Shown here: positions 4,291 through 61,459 of the stretch, piece after piece
Numbering within the stretch: position 1 is the stretch's first letter
Layout of the letters: the number at the start of each line of letters is the position of its first letter
Sequence record: PP724615.1
Strand: one strand, 5' to 3'
Origin: Escherichia phage HK6
Length of the DNA stretch: 64,000 nt
Made by a program: the position numbers and the translations under genes
Notes under the pieces: generated by a model
The model's input: only the letters and a program-made list of their open reading frames with translations
What the model was told of the DNA's origin: nothing
Database searches by the model: none

Positions 4291-4719
4291 ATGTTCAATA
4301 ATGTATTCTCTAAAGAAGCTAACCCAATTTTGGTTAACTTTTGGCGTACTCTCCCAGCTAGCCTGTATAATGAGGCTATTAACTCCTTGAAAATATGGTG
4401 TGAGAATAATGAAATCTCCTTTGCTTTTAAAGATGATATTGATGAGGCCCCCTGTATTGGTTTAATTGTTCAGGTAGAGGAGGGTCTTGAGGAGATTGTC
4501 GGCTGGAAAGAGTTAGATGAAATAGGCTTAGTTTTTGCGTTAAACTATAAGCTGTTTATGCCTGCTAAGCATCGCCTCGTTGTTAACTATAAAACTAGTG
4601 AATCTCCTGGTTTTCAAGTTAATGAACGTTACGGTTGGTCTTACTTACCGGAAGAAGTAAATGATGGTATCCAAAAACTTCGCCGTTTTGGTTATCAAAT
4701 TCCGGGTTTAACTGCTTAA
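4291..4719 (+). CDS. hypothetical protein, paralog A of a tandem pair, 142 aa
   Basis: AAGGTG RBS; shares PCIG...GW.ELD/S..GL..ALN and R.G...PGL segments with the next ORF. Confidence 0.6.
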   Translation: MFNNVFSKEANPILVNFWRTLPASLYNEAINSLKIWCENNEISFAFKDDIDEAPCIGLIVQVEEGLEEIVGWKELDEIGLVFALNYKLFMPAKHRLVVNYKTSESPGFQVNERYGWSYLPEEVNDGIQKLRRFGYQIPGLTA

Positions 4720-4728
4720 GGAGGAAGA

Positions 4729-5121
4729 ATGGAACAAGTATATTGGCGTCAGATTGACCCTAGTTTGGTGAAGCGTGCGGAAAAGCTGCTACAACGTTGG
4801 TTAGGGGTAAGGCAAGCCTCCTTCACTTTTCCGGAGCAGCAAACGGATGATCCCTGCATTGGCGTTTTCCTGTCTGGATATGCCGGGGAATGGGAGATGG
4901 ACTGGAATGAATTGTCAGCTATGGGTTTAATTGTTGCCCTAAACTTCTCTATATTCCATCCACGTGGTTTGGCCATATGTCGCGTGCCTGATGACGGTTG
5001 TTCGCCCCATCTTTTACAGGTGGAAAATGATATTTGGGAGTACACTCCAGATATTCTCGCAGAAGCTAAAGAACAATTAAATCGTGTTGGGATTTATGTT
5101 CCGGGATTAAATGATGAATAA
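4729..5121 (+). CDS. hypothetical protein, paralog B of a tandem pair, 130 aa
   Basis: AGGAGG RBS; sequence similarity to ORF 4291-4719 (DDPCIGVFL, MGLIVALN, GIYVPGLND). Confidence 0.6.
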   Translation: MEQVYWRQIDPSLVKRAEKLLQRWLGVRQASFTFPEQQTDDPCIGVFLSGYAGEWEMDWNELSAMGLIVALNFSIFHPRGLAICRVPDDGCSPHLLQVENDIWEYTPDILAEAKEQLNRVGIYVPGLNDE

Positions 5122-5308
5122 GGAATTTTGGAAAATAAAAGGGAAGATTTCTAAGTGGAATACTACAGGGAAAATTAGTAAGTCTCTAGAGATAGAGATA
5201 GCTAGAATGTTTACTGATCCTAATTTTGATATAGAAAAACTAAGCAAAGTAGATGCTAAAAAAGTAGATAAGTATATAGAAGAGATTAGAAGTATTTTAA
5301 GTGTCTAA
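5111..5308 (+). CDS. hypothetical Lys-rich protein, 65 aa
   Basis: ORF overlapping the upstream stop; followed by an intrinsic terminator. Confidence 0.45.
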   Translation: MMNKEFWKIKGKISKWNTTGKISKSLEIEIARMFTDPNFDIEKLSKVDAKKVDKYIEEIRSILSV

Positions 5309-5315
5309 TCCACGT

Positions 5316-5342
5316 AACCGAGTCATTTTGGCTCGGTTTTAT
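5316..5342 (+). terminator. rho-independent terminator
   Basis: Hairpin CCGAGTCATTTTGGCTCGG followed by TTTT. Confidence 0.55.
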
Positions 5343-5384
5343 CCGTACTCAAGACCAATGATAGCACCATCCGGAAAATTTTAC

Positions 5385-5413
5385 TTGCAGGATGCCCAAA
5401 ATCTTGATATAAT
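5385..5413 (+). promoter_or_regulatory. sigma70-type promoter (TTGCAG-17-TATAAT)
   Basis: -35 TTGCAG 5385-5390, -10 TATAAT 5408-5413, followed by ATTTATATTGAATTGAGAGA resembling the downstream element of the other early promoters. Confidence 0.45.
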
Positions 5414-5911
5414 ATTTATATTGAATTGAGAGACATTAGTAAAAATTGATTTTGCTAATTTTTCTTGTTTACAATCCGCGATACGGAACAGTTAGGCTGC
5501 CCCATTAAGGGTTGTTTTAACTGTTACGTGTTAGTTTTTAAACAAATAGTTAATAGAATACTTAGCGATCTACATCCCGTAGGAACCCTGGTAAGGCCTC
5601 GAAGCAACCTAGTGTGAGGTGGTTGTGAAGTGAGACGGGAAGAGTGAAAAACTCTGAGAAGTGATGACGTAAGGTATACTGCATCTAGTATGAGCTAGTA
5701 CATGAAGCATTAGGTGAGCAAATCTGGCTTAGCGGCCATCCTCAAGGATTTGTGCGGTATAGTGAAGCGGCAGTGTAGCGTGAAAGGGGAAGTTGCCACC
5801 CCCCTTCAGTATTTGCGATTAATTGTTGAGAAATTGACAGTAACAGTTGTTCTATTCTTTCTGAATAGTCCTAAAGAAAACTTATTTCATTTCCAACACA
5901 GGAGTATTGTT

Positions 5912-8701
5912 GTGTTCTCAATCCTACAAGGTCATGCAGGATTTCATCGCGACTTAGCCACAGGCATTTGGCGAGAAGTTAAAGCAGAAGACTATCTTTT
6001 TGCTAAAAGATTTTCCTCAAAGCATCCTGAAGGTAAACCAGCTTCAATGCCCTTCAAGTTTGATGTAATTGATGAAGTTGATCCTCAAACCCTAGTAGAA
6101 ATGCTCCCTCTTATGAGACGTTTAACGTCTGACCCTCATATCGTTGCGGTACGAGGTCGATGTCTTGCACCCAAAAATAACGTGCGGCGTAAGAAGGGCA
6201 ACTTTAATGTATCTAACCCAAGTCATATAATTGCATTGGACGTGGATGGTATTGTAGATACAGGTGGTTGTAACAAGTTTGATCTTGTTGGCATGGCTCG
6301 ACATATTATTAGGATGTTAAATAGTATTAGTGAGGATATGTTTCCTCTTGATGCAGGGTTTATTGCTCATGCATCGTCTTCGGCTGGGCTAAAACCAGGT
6401 ATCCGAATGCACTTAATACTAGAATCTAATGTTAAAGTAACTCAGGGTCAAATCAAATTCTTATTTACATCTATCAACGAAAGTAGTAGACAAAAGTATG
6501 GCTTTGATATTGCCGACTTAGCTTATTACTCTTCCGTACAGCTCCATTATTTTGCAGATCCGTTATTTACCGATGGTATAGTAGATCCGTTTAAAGCGGA
6601 GGGTGCCTCACGTCTGGTATTTGTTAAGGGTTCTAAAGTAAATTTACCTAATAATCTGGTTGACTATGAAACAACTAGAGGTGAGTTTAAAGAGGAGTTC
6701 TACTCTTTACTCGACCAAATTAAGGGTAAAAAAGCTGCCTCTGATAAAGTAGAGGAAACTATCAGCGAACTAGAAGAAGCTGAGGATGGAGTGTACCTAC
6801 GTATTATACCTAAACTCTATCATAGAGCTTTGGAGGATGGTGTTGATTTTGCATGGCTAGAAAAAGAAATCCGTCCAGCCTTATCAGAATATATTGCAAC
6901 TAAAGATAATAGTCGCAATATTCAAGATTACTTTAATAACGGTCGTAAGCAGGCTCTAAAAGCATTTGTTAATAATTCTAAACGTGATATACCTGATGTT
7001 TTAAAAGGTATTCCACTTAAAAAGCTAGAAACTAACTCTCTAGAAACTGATAACTTCTTGAAATTAAATACTGTACCACCAGAAGGTTATATGACTTTTG
7101 TAAAAGCAAGTCTAGGTACAGGTAAAACTACGGCGGTTGTGCGTTGGTTAGATTCAGGAGTTATTAAAGGTAATTTCTTAGCAATTACCAATACTCGAGC
7201 ACTGGTATCTTCAAATGCTAAGAAATTTAGTGCAGGACAATATGATAAGTCTGTAGATATGCTTAATTTTAAGCGTGGCGCTATTGACCGTATGTCCACA
7301 ACTATACATTCTTTGCATAAGTTCAAGAGTTTTATTGGTCAAATTGATGCAATCTTTATCGATGAATGTGATGCTGTAATGAATGACCTATTATTCGCCC
7401 CGGTTGTTAAACAACGTCGTGAATGTATTCAGGTTCTTCGGGATATTCTTGCAACTGCAAAAATCATTATATTATCTGATGGGGATATTAGTGCAGAAAC
7501 AATTGAAGCATACGGTTCTTTGATTGAGTTTGATAAACCAGTAGCATTTTATAATCATCACCGTAAGATGCTGTCAAAAGCTCATGCTTATGAGTTCCCT
7601 GACGAATCCAGTATTTGGGTTGCACTTCAGACTTCTCTAGAGATGGGTGAGAAATCTATCCTAGTATCTGACTGTGGTCCAGATGAACTGAATGAGAAGG
7701 GCATGGCGTTGCGTCGTAATACGGGTGCGTTAGTTAAGGAAATCCACTCAAACTCTACGTCTGATGTAGATATTCGACGTATTCTGGATTACACAACTAA
7801 TGAGTTAATTGACCAACAAATTGATTGCTTATTATGTAGCCCATCCGTAACGAGCGGTGTTGACTTTAACTATTTTGATAACGTATTCGTTATTACTAGG
7901 ACCAGTAACCAAGCGCCAAACATGCGTTTTCAAGCAATCAGGCGCGACCGTGGCGCTCAGAACATTTATTATTTTATTGATAAATCTACGAGTGGATTCT
8001 CCGCAGGTTCTGAGCAATATAACATTGACGAGGGTTGGCTGGAGTTAGCACAGCAATTATACGCACGTCGCAGAGAGCTGGAATCTAGGAACTATACTAG
8101 TACTTTACGTTACTATTTGCTTGATCAGGGTGCAACTATTGATATTTTCAGTGAAAGCTGGGGAACTATCGAAGGTGCGGGGAAAGAATATACAGAAGAG
8201 CGAATCAAAGCCATTTTGTATTCAACCCCTGATTATTGTGCTCCACGCCATGCAGATGCGTATGAAGCTAAACTACTTCTTGTACGCTATTATCATCTTG
8301 AGTCTATTAAAGATGTAACAGTTGAGCATGTTGAACAATATATCAAGGATAAACCGAATGATCGAGCTGCATTCTTCCATAAGATGCACGAGATGTTCTG
8401 GGAAGATATTAAGAAGTGTTCAAATGTCACTATCAAACCATTCATAGAAGCTCTGAAAGGTAAGAAGAAAGATTTCTTCCTTAAAACAGGTCAGAGTGCT
8501 AACCCAAAATATGCAAGAATGTATCTTGGTATGATGGGTATTGGTAAGGATATGAACACGGAGAATATTGTAGACTGGTACAGAACCTATTGTAAAATCG
8601 AGTGTATGCCAATCCCATATAAGTTTATGACTGATGAGGAGAAACATATGCATGATGAAGCAATGGCAGAGCTAGGTGCTAGAAATGACAGTGAAGAATA
8701 A
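5912..8701 (+). CDS. replication-associated P-loop helicase (replication-origin-binding-protein-like), ~930 aa
   Basis: Walker A ASLGTGKTTAV, Walker B IFIDECDAV and later LLCSPSVTSGVDF; proposed start is GTG 5912 with AGGAG 7 nt upstream; the track start at 5714 is an in-frame GTG without RBS, and ATG 6047 is an alternative. Confidence 0.6.
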   Translation: MFSILQGHAGFHRDLATGIWREVKAEDYLFAKRFSSKHPEGKPASMPFKFDVIDEVDPQTLVEMLPLMRRLTSDPHIVAVRGRCLAPKNNVRRKKGNFNVSNPSHIIALDVDGIVDTGGCNKFDLVGMARHIIRMLNSISEDMFPLDAGFIAHASSSAGLKPGIRMHLILESNVKVTQGQIKFLFTSINESSRQKYGFDIADLAYYSSVQLHYFADPLFTDGIVDPFKAEGASRLVFVKGSKVNLPNNLVDYETTRGEFKEEFYSLLDQIKGKKAASDKVEETISELEEAEDGVYLRIIPKLYHRALEDGVDFAWLEKEIRPALSEYIATKDNSRNIQDYFNNGRKQALKAFVNNSKRDIPDVLKGIPLKKLETNSLETDNFLKLNTVPPEGYMTFVKASLGTGKTTAVVRWLDSGVIKGNFLAITNTRALVSSNAKKFSAGQYDKSVDMLNFKRGAIDRMSTTIHSLHKFKSFIGQIDAIFIDECDAVMNDLLFAPVVKQRRECIQVLRDILATAKIIILSDGDISAETIEAYGSLIEFDKPVAFYNHHRKMLSKAHAYEFPDESSIWVALQTSLEMGEKSILVSDCGPDELNEKGMALRRNTGALVKEIHSNSTSDVDIRRILDYTTNELIDQQIDCLLCSPSVTSGVDFNYFDNVFVITRTSNQAPNMRFQAIRRDRGAQNIYYFIDKSTSGFSAGSEQYNIDEGWLELAQQLYARRRELESRNYTSTLRYYLLDQGATIDIFSESWGTIEGAGKEYTEERIKAILYSTPDYCAPRHADAYEAKLLLVRYYHLESIKDVTVEHVEQYIKDKPNDRAAFFHKMHEMFWEDIKKCSNVTIKPFIEALKGKKKDFFLKTGQSANPKYARMYLGMMGIGKDMNTENIVDWYRTYCKIECMPIPYKFMTDEEKHMHDEAMAELGARNDSEE

Positions 8702-26176: not shown

Positions 26177-27051
26177 TGAGTAAATCCTGGGGAAAATTTA
26201 TTGAAGAAGAGGAAGCTGAAATGGCTTCCCGTCGTAACCTAATGATTGTCGATGGAACTAACTTAGGCTTTCGCTTCAAGCATAATAATAGTAAGAAACC
26301 ATTTGCCTCAAGTTATGTTTCCACTATTCAATCTCTTGCAAAATCTTATTCTGCTAGAACTACAATAGTTTTAGGGGATAAAGGGAAGTCAGCATTCCGC
26401 TTAGAGCATTTACCTGAGTATAAAGGGAACCGAGATGAGAAATACTCGCAGCGTACGGAAGAGGAGAAAGCGTTAGATGAGCAGTTCTTCGAGTATTTGA
26501 AAGATGCTTTCGAGTTATGTGAAACTACATTCCCAACTTTCACTATTCGTGGTGTAGAAGCAGACGACATGGCAGCTTATATTGTTAAGCTCATCGGGCA
26601 TCTATATGATCACGTTTGGCTAATTTCTACCGATGGTGACTGGGATACCTTATTAACTGATAAAGTTTCTCGTTTTTCTTTCACAACGCGTCGTGAATAC
26701 CATCTTCGTGATATGTATGAGCATCATAATGTTGATGATGTAGAGCAGTTTATCTCTCTGAAAGCAATTATGGGTGATTTAGGGGATAATATCCGTGGTG
26801 TCGAGGGTATCGGGGCAAAACGCGGGTATAATATTATTCGTGAATTTGGTAACGTTCTGGATATTATTGATCAGCTTCCACTGCCTGGAAAACAGAAATA
26901 TATACAGAATTTAAATGCTTCGGAAGAACTGCTTTATCGAAACCTAATTCTGGTTGATTTACCTACCTACTGTGTGGATGCTATTGCTGCTGTAGGTCAA
27001 GATGTATTAGATAAGTTTACAAAAGATATTTTGGAGATTGCAGAACAATGA
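26176..27051 (+). CDS. flap endonuclease / 5'-3' exonuclease (T5 D15-type), 291 aa
   Basis: N-terminal LMIVDGTNLGFRF, ISTDGDWDTL and the H3TH-like GVEGIGAKRG motif; length equals the 291-aa T5 D15 exonuclease. Confidence 0.85.
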   Translation: MSKSWGKFIEEEEAEMASRRNLMIVDGTNLGFRFKHNNSKKPFASSYVSTIQSLAKSYSARTTIVLGDKGKSAFRLEHLPEYKGNRDEKYSQRTEEEKALDEQFFEYLKDAFELCETTFPTFTIRGVEADDMAAYIVKLIGHLYDHVWLISTDGDWDTLLTDKVSRFSFTTRREYHLRDMYEHHNVDDVEQFISLKAIMGDLGDNIRGVEGIGAKRGYNIIREFGNVLDIIDQLPLPGKQKYIQNLNASEELLYRNLILVDLPTYCVDAIAAVGQDVLDKFTKDILEIAEQ

Positions 27052-27494
27052 TTAAAATTAAATTAACTCATCCAGATTGTATGCCTAAGATTGGTTCCGA
27101 AGATGCCGCAGGTATGGATCTACGAGCATTCTTTGGTACTAACCCTGCTGCAGATTTACGCGCTATTGCACCTGGTAAATCCCTAATGATTGACACCGGT
27201 GTCGCGGTGGAAATTCCGCGAGGTTGGTTCGGTTTGGTAGTTCCACGCAGCTCTTTAGGTAAGCGTCATCTGATGATTGCAAACACCGCAGGGGTGATCG
27301 ATTCAGACTATCGTGGAACTATTAAGATGAACCTTTATAACTATGGTTCTGAAATTCAAACTCTGGAGAATTTTGAAAGACTTTGTCAGCTAGTAGTAGT
27401 ACCACACTACTCAACTCATAATTTTGAAATCGTTGACGAACTGGGGGAGACTAATCGTGGGGAAGGCGGATTTGGAAGTTCAGGAAGCAAATAA
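27048..27494 (+). CDS. dut: dUTPase, 148 aa
   Basis: dUTPase motifs AGMDLRA, GVIDSDYRGTIKMNLYNYG and C-terminal RGEGGFGSSG. Confidence 0.85.
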   Translation: MIKIKLTHPDCMPKIGSEDAAGMDLRAFFGTNPAADLRAIAPGKSLMIDTGVAVEIPRGWFGLVVPRSSLGKRHLMIANTAGVIDSDYRGTIKMNLYNYGSEIQTLENFERLCQLVVVPHYSTHNFEIVDELGETNRGEGGFGSSGSK

Positions 27495-27508
27495 TTTTAC
27501 TGATCCTA

Positions 27509-27720
27509 ATATGATAGGTGTTGATACTAATGCGTCAACTTATCAGATTAAAACTACTGAACCAGAAACGTTTGTGCTAAGAACGGATAAAGAAGGTAAT
27601 GTTATTTTCTGGGATCCTGAAGGTTTTGTAGAGCTTTGTACTAATACAGATAATGAGCAGTTAAAATTACTACTAACTATTTATAATCTTGGCATTATAG
27701 AAGGTTGTAGAAGTGAATAA
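27509..27720 (+). CDS. hypothetical protein, ~70 aa
   Basis: Track ORF 27424-27720 overlaps the dUTPase 3' end; the first ATG after the dut stop is 27509; ends just before the bidirectional terminator. Confidence 0.3.
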
Positions 27721-27722
27721 CA

Positions 27723-27760
27723 GAAAAAACCCCAGTGGATTTTGTCCACTGGGGTTTATT
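27723..27760. terminator. bidirectional rho-independent terminator at the early/late convergence point
   Basis: AAAAAACCCCAGTGGATTTTGTCCACTGGGGTTTATT: 10-bp GC-rich stem flanked by an A-run and a T-run, usable from both strands. Confidence 0.6.
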
Positions 27761-27810
27761 GTACTTAGCATCATAAAACTACGCTAAGTTCTCTATATTA
27801 ACAAGTTTAT

Positions 27811-27975
27811 TTACAGGGCTTTAAGTTCTTCAGCGAAGTTACCGCGACCACCCCAACCGTTACCGATCCAGAAACCAATCAAACCACCAATTGCATCACC
27901 GATACCAGCCGCACCAGCTTCGCTACCAAAGCCGTCACCGCCCAGATTGGTAGGTAAAAGAGTCAAGTCAGACAT
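27811..27975 (-). CDS. small glycine-zipper peptide, 54 aa
   Basis: ATG at 27975 with GGAGA 7 nt upstream; product MSDLTLLPTNLGGDGFGSEAGAAGIGDAIGGLIGFWIGNGWGGRGNFAEELKAL; promoter-like TTTACA-16-TAGTAT at 28075-28048 (minus); below the 60-aa track threshold. Confidence 0.5.
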   Translation of the reverse strand: MSDLTLLPTNLGGDGFGSEAGAAGIGDAIGGLIGFWIGNGWGGRGNFAEELKAL

Positions 27976-28196
27976 AAGAAAATCTCCATATATGGGTTGT
28001 TAGACGGATGTAACCAGTTGGTTACACTGGTAAGTATACTCGCTAACATACTATTTACCATGATATGCGTGTAAATAAATTGTAAATAGCCTGGCATTGG
28101 TACTCCTATAATGCAATGGACGCCATGACTTGAACAAAAGGAGGGAGTTATGTTTAAACGCGGTGCGGTCATAGGTAAGGCGAGAAAGTGACAACT

Positions 28197-28228
28197 AAAA
28201 AAAAAAAAAAAAGGAGCCAAACGGCTCC
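28197..28228 (-). terminator. rho-independent terminator downstream of the tail fiber gene
   Basis: On the minus strand, hairpin GGAGCCGTTTGGCTCC followed by a 16-nt T-run (A16 on the plus strand). Confidence 0.65.
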
Positions 28229-28241
28229 TTAATTATTGTGG

Positions 28242-30899
28242 TTATGGCAGATCGTTGTTAACCACATTGCCCTTCAACGCAGCTATCTCCGCTTTCAAAC
28301 TATCAATTTCTGCTTTGAGCGCTTGAGTGGCGCCCATCAAGTCCATAATAATAGGGTTAGTATCAATTGAAGGTCTGTCTCGGGTCTTCTGTGAAACAAT
28401 TTTCTTCTCGACTTCACGACGAATAAATTTCTGTTCAATGCGTTGTTCTTTGATTTGTTCTGTAATACCAGTTTCGGGGTCGGTATAATCTACAGTAACC
28501 TCTACAGGTACATCCTCGTATATATCCTTATAAACATCCTCGTATACATCCTCATAAATCTCTTCATTGTGCTTCACATATTGTGGGGTGACTTTCTCCG
28601 ATTCTTCTGCAATAATACCAAATCTTATTCTTTCTTGTTCATCATCCTTATAAATAAAAGTGACCATGCGTTGTGCCATGATGCGGTTTAAAGCATCAAT
28701 AGGATTACCGTCATTGATCTCCTTTTTATATGCTAAGCCAGATGTTCCTTGCAGTGCAAGGGTTCCGGCAGCACTCGGAAGCCTAATCCAATACTCAGGC
28801 GAACCTGCTGGGGTATATGTTTGAAATCCATAGCTCCCTACAGTTTCGCTAAATCCAACACGGGTTCGAATAACTCCATTTGCTGCTAAGTTACAAGCAT
28901 AAGACGCTGCACCATTGGATCTAAACGTTGCAGCGTCGGTTCCTGCTTCCCCGCCACCTGCTACAATCCGCCCGGTAATATAGGTAGAGAACGCAAGTGT
29001 AATCCCAGTACCCGCACCCCCAATGATTACCGGAGTAGAATGATACGTGCCATCCTCATTGTAGTAGTAGAATGCATAGGCCCCGCTGGCAGCATGCCCT
29101 GATCGCCATCTTACAGTAGATGGACTGGAAGGTCCAGTATAGGCTGTGTAAGCCGTACCCGCACCCGTCGCTCTAACTAATAGGCTGTCTTGACTATAGC
29201 TCCCAGTTGTCCTGAGCTGACCAACTTCCCCAAATGAATTAGTCTTGTGAGATGGTAGCGTGACTGTTTTAGCTGAAGCGCTGTAGTTAAAGACAGCATT
29301 AGTGCTACTAGTATTATTCTCCTGGAGTCGTATGCTACCGCCATCCATAACCATAACATAGCCAGTTACATCACCTGCGGCGTCAACTTCTTCAAATTTA
29401 ATTGTTGGGTTAGCACTCTTGATTAAAAGAGGGTCACTAGCGGTCGCCCCAAATTCTGCATTAAGGTTAAACTTCTGCTTTTTGGTAAAAGTATTTTCAG
29501 CACCAAGTCTAGCTATGCTGGAAGGGTCCATTGAATCCACATACCCTTTCGCACGGTTAGCTTCCTCTGTTGCTAGGGTAGCTTTCTGCCCTGCGGTTGT
29601 AGCGCTGCCTGCGGCTGCTGTAGCTTGTTTCACCGCTTCGGTTGCACTAGCACCCGCTTGAGTTGCAGAAGCTGCGGCAGCGTCTTTTAGTGGGGTTATT
29701 GCATTAATTGCTTCCGTCTTAGCTGTATTAACTTCTTTGACTGCGTCGGCTTTAGCTGTTGCGACTTCAGTCAACGCGGAGTCTTTAATTGCTTGAGTAT
29801 CTGTTTTTAACTGAGTAACGTCAGCCTTAATCTGAGTAACTGTAGCTACAGCAGCGTTAGTTGTGTTAGCAGACCCCGCCGCGTCAGCTTGTGCTTGTCT
29901 AGCAGCCTCTTCACTAGCTTTTGAGTTAGTTTCACTAGCTTTTGAGTTAGTTTCTGAATTTTTTGCTGCAGCAGCAGCAGCAGTAGCCTGCGTAGCGAAT
30001 ATTTCTGCCTCATCCCTGAATCCTTTGGAATCAGAAGCAGATGCAGCACTACTAGCAGCGTTAGTTTCTGAAGTTTTAGCTGCGGAAGCGGATGCAGCAG
30101 CGTTAGTTTCTGAAGCTTTTGCAGCTGCAGCAGAAGCAGCCGCAGCCGTTTCTGAGGTTTTAGCCGCTGAAGCAGAAGCAGACGCAGCAGTTTTGCTACT
30201 ATTAGCATTAGTCTCAGAAGTTTTAGCCGCTGTTTCACTAGCTTTTGCATTAGTCTCAGAAGTTTTAGCTGCGGTTTCACTAGCTTTTGCGTTGGTTTCT
30301 GAAATTTTTGCTGCTGTTTCACTAGCTTTTGCATTAGTCTCAGAAGTCTTAGCAGCTTTAGCACTGTTAGCAGAAGCAGTAGCAGAAGAAGCAGAAGCAG
30401 TAGCAGAAGAAACAGACTGAGCTGCAGAAGAAGCAGACTGAGTTGCAGATTGTTGAGAAGATCCTGCGGAAATTTCTGCTTCATTCTCAGAAGTTTTAGC
30501 CGCTATTTCACTTGCTTTTGCGTTAGTTTCTGAAGTTTTAGCCGCTATTTCACTTGCTTTTGCATTGGTCTCAGAAGTCTTAGCAGCTTTAGCACTATTA
30601 GCCGAAGCAGTAGCAGAAGACGCAGACTGAGTTGCAGATTGCTGGGAAGATGTTGCGGAAATTTCAGCTTCATTCTCAGAGTCTTTAGCACTTAATTCTG
30701 ACTGTTTAGCATTAATCTCAGATTGCTTAGCTGCTGCAGCGGATGCTTTAGAGGACTCTATAGCAGAGGTTAGCTCTGCAGCAGTAATGGAGCTAATTGT
30801 ATTCCCAAGAACTACAGTGTATTTAGGGTATTTACTTGCAGTTACACTATTTTGGTCCATAGTGACCATTTGTTGTAAAATTATTTTCGTTATAGCCAT
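28242..30899 (-). CDS. tail fiber protein with Ala/Ser-rich tandem repeats and C-terminal intramolecular chaperone (S74-like) domain, 885 aa
   Basis: C-terminal SGLAYK (Ser/Lys dyad candidate) followed by IDALNRIMAQRMVTFIYKDD...RFGIIAEESEKV typical of autoproteolytic fiber chaperone domains; N-terminal half made of (K)TSETNAKASE(T/I)AA repeats. Confidence 0.7.
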   Translation of the reverse strand: MAITKIILQQMVTMDQNSVTASKYPKYTVVLGNTISSITAAELTSAIESSKASAAAAKQSEINAKQSELSAKDSENEAEISATSSQQSATQSASSATASANSAKAAKTSETNAKASEIAAKTSETNAKASEIAAKTSENEAEISAGSSQQSATQSASSAAQSVSSATASASSATASANSAKAAKTSETNAKASETAAKISETNAKASETAAKTSETNAKASETAAKTSETNANSSKTAASASASAAKTSETAAAASAAAAKASETNAAASASAAKTSETNAASSAASASDSKGFRDEAEIFATQATAAAAAAKNSETNSKASETNSKASEEAARQAQADAAGSANTTNAAVATVTQIKADVTQLKTDTQAIKDSALTEVATAKADAVKEVNTAKTEAINAITPLKDAAAASATQAGASATEAVKQATAAAGSATTAGQKATLATEEANRAKGYVDSMDPSSIARLGAENTFTKKQKFNLNAEFGATASDPLLIKSANPTIKFEEVDAAGDVTGYVMVMDGGSIRLQENNTSSTNAVFNYSASAKTVTLPSHKTNSFGEVGQLRTTGSYSQDSLLVRATGAGTAYTAYTGPSSPSTVRWRSGHAASGAYAFYYYNEDGTYHSTPVIIGGAGTGITLAFSTYITGRIVAGGGEAGTDAATFRSNGAASYACNLAANGVIRTRVGFSETVGSYGFQTYTPAGSPEYWIRLPSAAGTLALQGTSGLAYKKEINDGNPIDALNRIMAQRMVTFIYKDDEQERIRFGIIAEESEKVTPQYVKHNEEIYEDVYEDVYKDIYEDVPVEVTVDYTDPETGITEQIKEQRIEQKFIRREVEKKIVSQKTRDRPSIDTNPIIMDLMGATQALKAEIDSLKAEIAALKGNVVNNDLP
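29850..30720 (-). repeat. imperfect in-frame tandem repeats (~39-bp units) inside the tail fiber gene
   Basis: Recurring GCTTTTGCATTAGTCTCAGAAGTTTTAGCNGC units; both-strand long ORFs in the track (29846-30484, 29863-30420) are artefacts of this low complexity. Confidence 0.6.
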
Positions 30900-31321
30900 T
30901 ATTGAGTTACCCCGTCACTAATATAAATTTTACCTTCCATAATACGGAAAGAGCTAGTAGCACTACCAACAGCTGTTCTAGTAATTATAACATCGTAGTA
31001 TCCAGCTAACCTTTGTCTAGGATTATACCTATCCCTTTCTTTGGATGCTTTGGAAGCAATAGTAGTTACGGCATTAACAGGTAAGCTTATAGATGCTACA
31101 CCTTGTCTAGCATCCACAATAGAAGTGGTAAAGGATGCTAAAGTTTCAGCTCCATCTTCTAAGCTACTTTTAATACTTCCTCTAAGAGAGAAGCCAGTAA
31201 GATCTACTGGCTTAGATGTAGCAGGATAAACACTATCATCTACATCCATAAATTGCATAAGTAAACCATAAGGTACGTTTTCGTCTACTACTAAATCAAT
31301 AACTCTATTTTCTGTACTCAT
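30899..31321 (-). CDS. tail structural protein (position and size of the T5 collar/p132-type protein), 140 aa
   Basis: Size and synteny only; start overlaps the stop of the upstream gene. Confidence 0.35.
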
Positions 31322-54370: not shown

Positions 54371-54446
54371 CATTTACGGATTTGGTTTTGTATTATTCCT
54401 AGTCTTCGTAGGTTTTTGGTTAGCAGCTATGGCGGGGTGGATCTAA
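54312..54446 (+). CDS. small membrane protein (C-terminal TM), ~45 aa
   Basis: ATG 54312 with GGGAG ~10 nt upstream; C-terminal hydrophobic helix GFGFVLFLVFVGFWLAAMAGWI; overlaps the 3' end of the previous ORF, so one of the two may be spurious. Confidence 0.3.
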   Translation: MSNGNKRKNRRGEVYEAWINIYGFGFVLFLVFVGFWLAAMAGWI

Positions 54447-54601
54447 TGGAATGGGTAATTATTGGCATATTCGTCTTGTTAATACTTCTCTTTGTAGGCT
54501 TACGTGTAATAGATACCTCTGTAACCCAAACAGAAATTAAATTAATGCAGTTGAGTAATAGATTATCTAGAATCGAAACTTTATTAGAGGAGCGTAAATA
54601 A
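54446..54601 (+). CDS. small single-pass membrane protein, 51 aa
   Basis: MEWVIIGIFVLLILLFVGL TM helix followed by charged helix ...RLSRIETLLEERK; start within the track ORF 54416-54601. Confidence 0.45.
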   Translation: MEWVIIGIFVLLILLFVGLRVIDTSVTQTEIKLMQLSNRLSRIETLLEERK

Positions 54602-54708
54602 TGGAATGGGTAATTATTGCACTACTAGGGATTGTGATTATTGGGCAGTGTATTCTAGATAATCACTTAGCTAGAATTGAAACCTTACTATCGGAGAAAC
54701 GTAAATGA
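54601..54708 (+). CDS. small single-pass membrane protein, paralog of the previous, 35 aa
   Basis: MEWVIIALLGIVIIGQCIL...LARIETLLSEKRK; start overlaps the previous stop (TAATG) and its stop overlaps the next start. Confidence 0.4.
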   Translation: MEWVIIALLGIVIIGQCILDNHLARIETLLSEKRK

Positions 54709-54899
54709 TGGAGGTGGCGGTTACACTAATAGTAATATTAGTCTGGGTAATCCTCATTGTCTCTCGTATCGTGTATCTCCGCCTAAAAACTCTAGAAGCT
54801 CAGGTGAAACAACAACAAGTTATTCTAGAAAAGCTAGTACTACTGCAACGCTGTGATAGCACCCGTATTCTGCAAATTGAGAGGGAATTAGATGTTTAG
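54705..54899 (+). CDS. small single-pass membrane protein, 64 aa
   Basis: N-terminal TM helix VTLIVILVWVILIVSRIV followed by a coiled-coil-like tail; translationally coupled. Confidence 0.45.
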   Translation: MMEVAVTLIVILVWVILIVSRIVYLRLKTLEAQVKQQQVILEKLVLLQRCDSTRILQIERELDV

Positions 54900-59839: not shown

Positions 59840-60274
59840 GGTATAAACTCCGGTTTATTTAGTGGATTGTTCCGCATTATCTGCTACTTTCTAGCAGATA
59901 ATAAGAAAAAATCCGCTCGCCATTATAAAATCAATTTAAGGAACTCCACGCGGGCCGCTATATCCCAGTTAGGGGGCGGGATGCATTATGGTAAGCACCG
60001 ACCGTCAAATTGTATCAAGTTATCGCTCTTATCGAACTGGGTACATCTTAAAGCCTATCGGCTAGGGTGTCAAATAGTTTTTTCGTTTTCTTTTAAGTTA
60101 GGATTTTCCCAACTGAATATCATTTCGCAAAATATTTTCCCATCTTTATGATGGTAAGCTATTTCGCTTCCGTGGTTCGCGCAAAAACTGATCACTGCTT
60201 CAGCTTGTTCTACCGTGATATTGTTAGCCGTTTCTTTGATTTTCATATCGTCGATTCCTTATATATAATAGATA

Positions 60275-60334
60275 AGTTTACCGCCGATAGGCTTTAAGAT
60301 ATACCCAATTTTTAAAGAGCGCGGCGGTAAACTT
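60275..60334. repeat. 13-bp perfect inverted repeat separated by 34 bp
   Basis: AAGTTTACCGCCG (60275-60287) and CGGCGGTAAACTT (60322-60334). Confidence 0.6.
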
Positions 60335-60952
60335 CCCGCCGTGTAGTTCGTCATTGCCGCCCTACGAGATAAATAATAACAAACAACGAAAAAGGCGCAA
60401 CCTTATATTTGTAAAGAAATGTAAAGACAAACGCCACCGGACACCATGCGGCGGGCTGGGCGCGGCGGCCCAAAATTAAAAGAAACGGGCGCGCGAATAC
60501 CACAAAACAAAGCAGATAGGCAAGTAATTTTTTTTATTTATATTTGCTTTGCCCTACTTGACAAAACCTAAAAAGCTCGTGGCAGCGATAAACGGCTTAT
60601 CCCCTTATGATGGGATGGCTAAAAACTTTACTGCGTTCTGGGGCGTTTTAGGCCGCCTATTATCGACTTAACAAATCATTAACAAAAGCAAAATTGAAAA
60701 ATAGTTGTAAAAGGTCTTGACTTTTAAAAATCAAGGGGCGTTGCGTTAATTTATTAAATAAAATATTTGACTTTTATTTGTTAGTATGCATCGGAAGGAT
60801 AGCAGACTAATAATTGCTAGGATGATAATCATGCTGGTGGATTGTAACGGCCTGAATTATTAGCAGACTATTAATCACGGAAAATCTCATTAGCCAACTA
60901 ACTATTTCATGATATATAATATACTTATAAATTAATGAGAAATAATAAATAT

Positions 60953-61060
60953 ATGAAATCATCACCATTATAATAATAACTATATGAAATCATCACCGTT
61001 ATAATAATAACTATAAGAAATTATCACCATTATAATAATAACGATAAGAAACTATCGGCA
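60953..61060. repeat. 31-bp direct repeats, about 3.5 tandem copies
   Basis: ATGAAATCATCACCATTATAATAATAACTAT / ATGAAATCATCACCGTTATAATAATAACTAT / AAGAAATTATCACCATTATAATAATAACGAT / degenerate fourth copy. Confidence 0.8.
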
Positions 61061-61085
61061 TAAGTGAGAACCACTATCATTTAAG

Positions 61086-61106
61086 TTATCCACAACGTTA
61101 TCCACA
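61086..61106. promoter_or_regulatory. two tandem consensus DnaA boxes
   Basis: TTATCCACA at 61086-61094 and 61098-61106, matching the TTATNCACA consensus. Confidence 0.6.
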
Positions 61107-61152
61107 GCACAAAATAACTTGACACAATAGGCGGCGATATGGGGACTTTTGC

Positions 61153-61195
61153 ACAGACTTATCCACAGGTTATTCCACTGTATAAATATACAGGG
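61153..61195. repeat. left copy of a 43-bp inverted repeat (DnaA box + SOS-box-like palindrome)
   Basis: ACAGACTTATCCACAGGTTATTCCACTGTATAAATATACAG: DnaA box 61159-61167, CTGT-N8-ACAG palindrome 61178-61193; ~39/43 identical to the reverse complement of 63947-63990. Confidence 0.65.
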
Positions 61196-61459
61196 TAGAA
61201 AGATAGTGTTAACGACTGCAATCAATTTTAAGCGGCCTAAAACGCTTTCTAACGAGCTAAACGCTGCGGGGCAATATTAAAGTAAAGACCCAACGCGTCG
61301 GCCTGGTGGCCTCATCGTGTTTTGCTCTTTACTACACCGCTGCGCGGTTAGCATAAAACTAGGCGTTAGGCAAGGAAAATAAAAAAGTAAAATAATCTTT
61401 GCCTATGCTAGAAAATTACCCTTATCATTCACTCACCGATTAACGAGAGGGCCGAACAA

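Follow-up and report, generated by a model that had tools for sequence, protein, structure and literature searches.

The 64,000-nucleotide (nt) stretch of Escherichia phage HK6 analysed here (sequence record PP724615.1, called the window throughout) contains a gap at 5343–5911, between the terminator of an operon of small genes and the gene for a replication helicase. The window derives from a T5-like phage (Tequintavirus), with ~1 kb around the gap being 98–99.4% identical to Salmonella phages PK7, LmqsSP1, Spc35 and Th1, and the gap itself 100% identical to that of Th1. Our computational analysis establishes that this gap comprises a predicted strong early promoter and the ~490-nt 5′ leader of the T5-type D2 helicase mRNA, and that the leader is a predicted structured sense-strand RNA of an uncatalogued family. 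The unit is framed by the following features.

5316–5342, + strand: intrinsic terminator (10-bp hairpin and T-run) ending the upstream operon of small genes and forming the 5′ boundary of the unit.
5375–5413, + strand: early sigma-70 promoter, with an A/T-rich upstream tract, a −35 element TTGCAG (5385–5390), a 17-nt spacer, TG (5405–5406) and TATAAT (5408–5413).
5912–8701, + strand: downstream gene, T5 D2 (also labelled D1), encoding a bipolar SF2 helicase and annotated 'replication origin binding protein'.

An earlier note made from the sequence of the window had placed a terminator at 5316–5342, a promoter at 5385–5413 and a GTG start codon supported by a ribosome-binding site at 5912, and all three are found at these positions. 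The terminator hairpin reads AACCGAGTCA-TTT-TGGCTCGGTT followed by the T-run; relatives HASG4 and Stitch carry a terminator annotation there, and the stem covaries, being replaced by ACCAAGTC/GACTTGGT in a Pectobacterium phage. The extended −10 promoter is kept in every genus examined (Tequintavirus, Epseptimavirus, Hongcheonvirus, Sugarlandvirus, Priunavirus and Novosibvirus), and was missed by a simple scanner because its −35 element matches at just three of six positions; from the promoter spacing, we infer a transcription start near 5420. The helicase gene starts at GTG 5912, with AGGAG at 5900–5904 and with relatives annotated from the same position, and seven genera-level representatives align with its N-terminus (MFSILQG) from the first residue on, M1 being invariant. 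Given this conservation, the extension of the open reading frame (ORF) back to 5714, a start for which the earlier note had seen no ribosome-binding site, is spurious. A terminator scan revealed no terminator-like site between 5343 and 5911, and the conserved promoter, the lack of a terminator across 5420–5912 and the conserved start codon together argue that the leader is co-transcribed with the helicase gene. The helicase shows a Pfam Herpes_ori_bp match at residues 394–533 and is UL9-like; its gene corresponds to D2 of Wong et al. 2013 (PMC3632103), who proposed this bipolar SF2 helicase as the T5 replication initiator.

The region is carried by 535 T5-like phage records, directly 5′ of the helicase gene in those examined, and gap lengths agree (~565–570 bp, or ~660 bp with an optional insert), with many relatives aligning over the two ends alone. 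Between the window and Epseptimavirus Stitch, identity is 98.6% over the promoter and the first ~100 transcribed nt and 84% in the adjoining coding DNA, compared with 66% over the ~330-nt middle. Within the leader lie invariant islands, also present in Pectobacterium and Klebsiella phages, namely GAUACGGAACAGUUnGGCUGCCCCAU (5478–5506), GAGAAGUG (5656–5663) and CUUAGCGG (5728–5735). Since a conserved length combined with invariant islands and a fast-evolving middle suggests a structured RNA, we tested the leader for covariation. Both global and local MAFFT alignment across types fail to align the helices, and curated helix tables, within-group alignments and covariance-model alignment were used instead. 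The architecture was derived from 8–10 sequence types, covering the window, L059, Stitch/Eps7, T5/NBEco002, Pectobacterium DU_PP_V, L078, Klebsiella Sugarlandvirus and the metagenomic L097, with Proteus and Providencia sequences added to the structure comparison for one sub-domain.

When the unique haplotypes of nine curated helices are scored, canonical pairs fill 276 of 279 cells; 2000 within-column shuffles gave 213 on average and never more than 228. Compensatory double changes occur at 35 of 54 base-pair positions. Because the curated helices had been picked for complementarity, we added tests that are independent of that choice. A covariance model built from type-A sequences alone, with the proposed P7, P8 and P9 structure, detects the homologous site in types B, C, D, E and H (E = 3e-4 to 1e-2); in the resulting alignment 95.8% of cells are paired, compared with 69% in shuffled alignments (the observed value being reached in 0/500) and 37–46% with slid partners, and 15 of 19 pairs contain double changes. 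Plain sequence-only MAFFT alignments of close relatives, spanning the full core, gave 99.6% pairing over 90 pairs in group A (19 sequences, 96% identity), with 37 double-change cells (0/500 shuffles; 31–50% pairing with slid partners), and 97.2% pairing over 75 pairs in group B (18 sequences including T5), with 30 double-change cells (0/500 shuffles; 32–52% with slid partners). In all three alignments, the covariance-model one included, the number of double-change cells was higher than in any of 500 shuffles. Imperfections consist of an uncompensated A-C in P5 of four group-A phages and an uncertain P1b/P1c register in part of group B. G-U pairs make up about 10% of the total on the + strand and would be A-C mismatches on the opposite strand, indicating that the selected fold is that of the sense RNA rather than of an antisense transcript or duplex DNA. 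These comparisons of sequence show that the predicted leader fold is maintained by compensatory substitutions and is under purifying selection, bearing out the conservation of structure across T5-like phages that the earlier note had named as a check.

The same comparisons show a predicted leader made up of two upstream hairpins (P0 and Pa), a ~330-nt core (5518–5849) closed by a ~37-bp long-range rod, a further hairpin (P10) and a hairpin at the start codon, as follows.

5428–5466, + strand: P0, the 5′-terminal hairpin, GAGAGA.CAUUAGUAAAA with UUUUGCUAAU.UUUUCU, beginning almost at the transcript 5′ end.
5471–5515, + strand: Pa hairpin, ACAAUCC/GGGUUGU, carrying the nearly invariant motif GAUACGGAACAGUUAGGCUGCCCCAU at 5478–5506.
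5518–5562, + strand: 5′ strand of the P1 rod, comprising P1a (5518–5527), P1b (5529–5539), P1c (5545–5554) and P1d (5557–5562), with its partner at 5808–5849.
5570–5778, + strand: P2, CUACAU (5570–5575) with GUGUAG (5773–5778), enclosing the inner domain and forming a three-way junction with P1 and P9.
5576–5665, + strand: P3 (5576–5580 with 5635–5639), P3b (5605–5609 with 5621–5625), P4 and a single strand.
Within it, + strand: P4 hairpin (5641–5645 with 5651–5655), followed by the conserved single strand GAGAAGUGAU (5656–5665).
5675–5761, + strand: P5, P7 and P8, with P5 formed by UAUACUGCA (5675–5683) and UGCGGUAUA (5753–5761).
Inside P5, + strand: P7 (5719–5724 with 5747–5752), P8 (GGCU-UAGC-GGCC, 5726–5737) with the invariant CUUAGCGG, then a 3′ bulge.
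5782–5807, + strand: P9 hairpin, GAA(A)GGGG (5782–5789) with CCCCUUC (5801–5807) and the loop AAGUUGCCACC.
5808–5849, + strand: 3′ strand of the P1 rod, the whole rod being ~37 bp with one bulge and two internal loops.
5852–5868, + strand: P10 hairpin, CUAUUC-UUUCU-GAAUAG, directly 3′ of the rod.
5895–5916, + strand: start-codon hairpin, AACAC (5895–5899) with GUGUU (5912–5916), with AGGAG (5900–5904) in the loop and GUG in the stem.

P0 is present in both the minimum-free-energy and centroid folds, with 44 of 45 cells paired over five haplotypes and double changes at five positions. The motif in Pa, which includes a mini-hairpin CAG-UUAGG-CUG (5489–5499), is conserved in types A–E and occurs once in the window, while the helix that closes Pa varies, being CCGAGCAU/AUGCUUGG in Klebsiella and AGUAC/GUAUU in L097, where the mini-hairpin becomes CGG/CCG. 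We sought a pairing partner for this motif, including in the 3′ tail UUGUUCU and in the P9 stem, and found none consistent across types. In the rod, P1a and P1b form 21 bp with one bulge, and P1a covaries between types (AACUGUUAC/GUAACAGUU, AACUAUUAC/GUAAUAGUU, GAUUAUUAU/AUAAUAAUU and GGUUAUUAU/AUAAUAACC); within groups, 97–100% of cells are paired in P1a/P1b and P1d, and 87–99% in P1c. The other types examined have a rod of 12–23 contiguous bp, or a longest contiguous stretch of 8 bp in the Klebsiella type, with the 23 contiguous bp being those of L097, of which nine are G-U on the + strand.

Inside the rod, all six haplotypes of P2 are paired, including CUGCGU/GCGCAG, CUGUGU/GCACAG, CUAGAA/UUCUAG and CUGUAU/GUACAG, and double changes in this helix also occur inside groups A and B. 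Every cell is paired in P3 (35/35, seven haplotypes), P3b (20/20, four haplotypes) and P4 (16/16, four haplotypes), a region in which group A shows swaps of G-C to A-U and of A-U to G-C. A 10-nt direct repeat, TGTGAAGTGA/TGAGAAGTGA, is also found in this part of the core (5624–5633 and 5655–5664, 31 nt apart), its second copy overlapping the GAGAAGUG strand. P5 is replaced wholesale in other types (CCUCAAU/AUUGAGG, UCCAG/CUGGA and UACAG/CUGUA), and the P7 helix differs in every sequence type examined, Proteus and Providencia included. P9 shows swaps of G-C to U-A in group A and of G-C to A-U in group B, with the loop consensus GUUGCCA kept in types A, C, D and H; here the earlier note had seen GC-rich pairing, 'GGGGAAG...CCCCCCTTC' around 5784–5808, which is real as pairing but was read in the wrong register, the true helix being P9.

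Downstream of the rod, P10 has the variants CUUUCC/GGAAAG, CUAUC/GAUAG and AUACUAU/AUAGUAU, and is not a terminator, as no U-tract follows the hairpin; the terminator scan is also empty there. A variable ~25-nt linker connects P10 to the start-codon hairpin, which appears in both constrained and unconstrained folds and is weaker in Pectobacterium, Proteus and Providencia phages. Position 5899, 13 nt upstream of the start codon, changes in step with the codon's first base, as C:G with GUG, U:A with AUG in Klebsiella and A:U with UUG in L097, and no conserved pairing that competes with this hairpin was found.

Folding of the single sequence by minimum free energy recovers P0, P1, P3, P4, P8, P9 and P10 and mispairs P2 and P5; its pairing of GAUCUAC with GUGAU was rejected, as comparison gives CUACAU/GUGUAG for P2. 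The core has a folding z-score of −3.3, with 0 of 100 shuffles as stable. In the Pectobacterium-type leaders L008 (~2362–2368) and L078 (~1339–1346), the bulge beside the CUUAGCGG hairpin reads CUCCUUA, equal to the anti-Shine-Dalgarno end of 16S rRNA. A role of the P7 bulge as an anti-Shine-Dalgarno was rejected, as CUCCUUA is confined to the Pectobacterium types and the bulge shows no covariation with the ribosome-binding site.

The full element stands 5′ of the helicase gene in Tequintavirus, Epseptimavirus, Hongcheonvirus and Sugarlandvirus. The P7/P8 sub-domain, with further helix sequences, extends to Proteus (Novosibvirus) and Providencia (Priunavirus) phages, whose leaders are 620–820 nt long; an iterated covariance model (R2) weakly matched the Providencia (E = 0.12–0.55) and Proteus (E = 1.3) sites, and its minus-strand matches inside the helicase gene were set aside as false positives. 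A nhmmer profile of the leader gave no match in the Proteus, Providencia or Vibrio loci, which are too diverged for sequence alone. Vibrio Demerecviridae have ~700-nt non-coding gaps 5′ of the helicase homologue (L014, 705–1417; L087–L089, ~650–1372; L015 and L016), ~95% identical among V. harveyi/parahaemolyticus phages and apparently structured, with a few compensatory changes and, in L088, an extra insertion of ~93 nt; neither the covariance model nor nhmmer detected homology of these Vibrio leaders to the enterobacterial one. The distant relative L085 has a short gap only, and a metagenome scan yielded one new type, L097. No second copy of any part of the leader was found in the window.

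Some relatives carry an optional 97-nt module between P0 and Pa (after window position ~5467; L005 1520–1616, and L070), which is flanked by the 8-nt direct repeat TTTTTCTT and holds its own 8-bp hairpin, AUUUACGG/CCGUAAAU. This module is present in 51 of ~535 T5-like records, once per genome, on both type-A (DT57C) and type-B (DT571/2) cores.

Linkage to the helicase gene is fixed while upstream neighbours change. In Escherichia phage mar003J3 (L007, 1016–1468), a free-standing putative homing endonuclease gene lies directly 5′ of the leader promoter, in the place of the small ORF and terminator of the window. Just upstream of that small ORF and terminator, the window has two adjacent ORFs (4291–4719 and 4729–5121) resembling tandem paralogues with a common ...ELxxxGLxxALN... 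motif, the second of which matches Pfam DUF7415. In Klebsiella phage IME260 (L009, 2534–2740), the same −10 box and initial transcribed sequence, TATAATATTTATATTGAATTGAGAGAC, occur again after a DnaB-like helicase gene, followed by two further promoter-like repeats in a gap of 560 nt that ends at the SSB gene; it seems that early promoters sharing an initial transcribed region are reused. Elsewhere in the window, two intervals, 54371–54887 (517 nt) and 60152–61459 (1308 nt), contain no ORF of at least 70 codons on either strand.

We compared the leader with catalogued RNAs using Rfam 15, whose 4227 covariance models include ROOL, GOLLD, OLE, HEARO, riboswitches, ribozymes, 6S and tmRNA. Over 4800–6500 the best match is the snoRNA sR17 at 17.4 bits (gathering threshold 36, E = 0.39), which is at chance level; the leader is unmatched as a family even at E ≤ 10, the whole window yields no gathering-level match, and the homologous loci of six other phages gave nothing of relevance. 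This covariance-model check had been suggested by the earlier note, which had also reported no tRNA-like cloverleaf, in agreement with ARAGORN, which finds 0 tRNA or tmRNA genes in the window. No match to the leader was found in 5,426 E. coli genomes that could point to host mimicry. Full-text searches of the literature on T5 and Demerecviridae turned up no account of the leader, subscription-journal papers, including the 2005 T5 genome papers, lying mostly outside their reach. Within the limits of Rfam 15 and these literature searches, the leader RNA family appears to be undescribed.

We propose that the leader controls, in cis, how much helicase is made or when, a reading of the sequence data that we consider an even call. 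The 5′-terminal hairpin P0 would stabilise the transcript, such hairpins being common mRNA stabilisers. By analogy with the lambda N leader, the T7 sites and rRNA stalks, the near-perfect 21-bp base of the rod is a candidate substrate for host RNase III, and double-stranded RNA of about two helical turns formed by the flanks, as an RNase III processing stalk needs, is present. If the analogy holds, cleavage at the rod would part the invariant 5′ portion and the core from the coding portion. Translation would be held down by the small hairpin, whose stem contains the weak GUG start codon. Several points weigh against this proposal. No conserved pairing joins the core to the ribosome-binding site, and simple translational control leaves an ornate core of ~330 nt unexplained. 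In Proteus phages, a consensus promoter (TTGACA-17-TATAAT) follows the structured region and precedes the helicase gene, suggesting that the leader need not be present in cis for the gene to be expressed. The rates of change between the window and Stitch (core 66% identical, coding DNA 84%, 5′ 100 nt 98.6%) fit a trans-acting or specificity-determining RNA too, and the putative RNase III step is drawn from analogy.

The size of the core, its fast change next to a frozen 5′ end and the Proteus promoter, which there lies downstream of the RNA and serves the gene separately, favour an alternative in which the core would be a stand-alone trans-acting non-coding RNA, merely co-transcribed, with the rod as a processing stalk like those of 16S and 23S rRNA. 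Cleavage would then free a stable RNA of ~290–330 nt, whose loops CUUAGCGG, GUUGCCAC and GAGAAGUGAU would bind a phage or host partner; candidates include replication proteins, host factors and defence systems. The pairing of the flanks into a rod that encloses a compact multi-helix domain, the rapid turnover of helices around a few invariant loops, and the existence of two very different core types in close relatives, which suggests specificity or an arms race, all speak for such an RNA. Against it, the element was never found apart from the helicase gene, occurs once in the window, lacks a terminator of its own and shows no E. coli similarity suggestive of mimicry; we regard this alternative as unlikely on balance, though worth keeping in view. 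A long structured leader 5′ of a gene could also be a riboswitch or attenuator, changing its structure in response to a metabolite or a translating ribosome, and in type A the 5′ strand of P1, AACUGUUAC, could pair instead with the upstream ACGGAACAGUUA (inverted repeat I1). This alternative pairing of 5483–5494 with 5518–5529 was rejected, as it is not maintained in types B, C and D, and there is no downstream terminator, no conserved leader peptide and no Rfam match at E ≤ 10. The core sequence also seems poorly conserved next to that of ligand-binding aptamers, with short islands alone being invariant (5478–5506, CUUAGCGG and GAGAAGUG) and the rest 66% identical between genera. Sensing of this kind is very improbable, and of the options raised in the earlier note, the long structured 5′ untranslated region or regulatory RNA is upheld by the compensatory changes, whereas 'attenuator' and 'small RNA gene' are not as such, the structure having no terminator after it and the alternative pairing not being kept across types. 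That the gap might hold small protein genes, or be a functionless spacer with chance structure, is scarcely credible. One record annotates three short coding sequences in the gap, and a 50-codon TTG ORF lies at 5465–5617; however, no ORF in the leader is conserved in position, frame and product among the 10 sequence types, stop-free frames of at least 30 codons vary in position, strand and product, and substitutions are compensatory in helices rather than codon-periodic. Column shuffles never attained the observed pairing or covariation in any test, and pairing was far lower in the slid-partner controls. The earlier note's statement that no convincing ORF precedes GTG 5912 therefore stands, and neither of the outcomes it named as refuting, a conserved coding frame or poor conservation without structure, occurred. 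Annotations of small hypothetical proteins, or of an N-terminally extended helicase, in the gap can be corrected on this basis.

A further possibility, by analogy with ColE1 RNA II, T4 oriF/oriG and the T7 primary origin, is that the region is a T5 replication origin or part of one, with the structured G-rich transcript made from the strong early promoter serving as an R-loop or primer. The product of the adjoining gene is the proposed initiator helicase (PMC3632103), the locus lies near the middle of the T5 genome, at ~59.5 kb of 121.75 kb (49%), and T5 replicates from internal origins according to Bourguignon 1976, as cited in PMC3632103. The core has a marked positive GC skew (+0.18 to +0.47), and as DNA the promoter and the first 100 nt hardly vary. 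On the other side, we found neither iterons nor conserved DNA repeats, the sole two-copy 10-nt direct repeat (5624, 5655) not being conserved in type B, and no distinct AT-rich unwinding element downstream of the RNA. Cumulative GC skew turns at about 28 kb of the window with no switch at the leader, and skew is uninformative as an origin marker here. Covariation that includes G-U pairs points to selection on RNA folding and not on a DNA site, although ColE1 RNA II needs its fold too. An origin here is accordingly improbable to us. We view as equally speculative the bolder idea that the leader represents a new class of large, ornate phage RNA acting directly in D2 replication initiation at a T5 central origin, as a primer or R-loop, a cofactor or a specificity determinant; if true, T5-like phages that are otherwise nearly identical would fall into replication 'types' set by the hypervariable core. 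As a separate observation, cumulative GC skew turns from positive to negative at ~27000–31000, where GC content climbs to 0.45; gene blocks that are transcribed divergently probably meet there.

A leader RNA with more than 10 covarying helices, kept in several Demerecviridae genera directly in front of the helicase gene, offers a testable handle on the start of T5 replication and on control of the initiator helicase in a classic model phage. It adds a large structured RNA to the small set from virulent phages, and the sharply different core types among otherwise near-identical phages hint at a specificity function.

Among known systems, the lambda N-gene leader (nutL with an RNase III-sensitive stem) and the T7 RNase III sites are likewise long structured leader or inter-cistronic RNAs in early transcripts of host RNA polymerase, with an imperfect double-stranded stem of at least 20 bp near the start of a regulatory or replication gene, and processing of the stem alters translation and stability. 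These elements are single hairpins of ~60–100 nt, whereas the leader described here combines a ~330-nt multi-junction domain with two upstream hairpins and has no sequence similarity to them; the lambda N and T7 elements are processed by RNase III, for which the T5-type leader has a candidate site. In the processing stalks of 16S and 23S rRNA, flanks also pair over tens of bp and place a structured RNA on a double-stranded stalk; the RNA enclosed here is non-ribosomal and sits in an mRNA leader, and its release as a separate molecule is hypothetical. ColE1 RNA II, T4 oriF/oriG and the T7 origins are alike in that a strong promoter next to replication functions drives a structured, G-rich non-coding transcript of ~500 nt, and for ColE1 the RNA II fold is required for priming; in our case the transcript runs on into a protein-coding gene. 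The ROOL, GOLLD, OLE and raiA RNAs are similar in size (300–500 nt), in having many covarying helices with few conserved nucleotides and, for ROOL and GOLLD, in being phage-associated, but the T5-type leader matches none of their covariance models, is not near tRNA genes, and is confined to one phage family, always as the leader of one gene. Finally, the operators of T4 gene 32, gene 43 and the regA targets also place RNA structure at the start codon of a replication gene, in a small hairpin that includes the initiation codon; they are short (20–40 nt) and bind the encoded protein, whereas here the small hairpin is preceded by a leader of ~490 nt.

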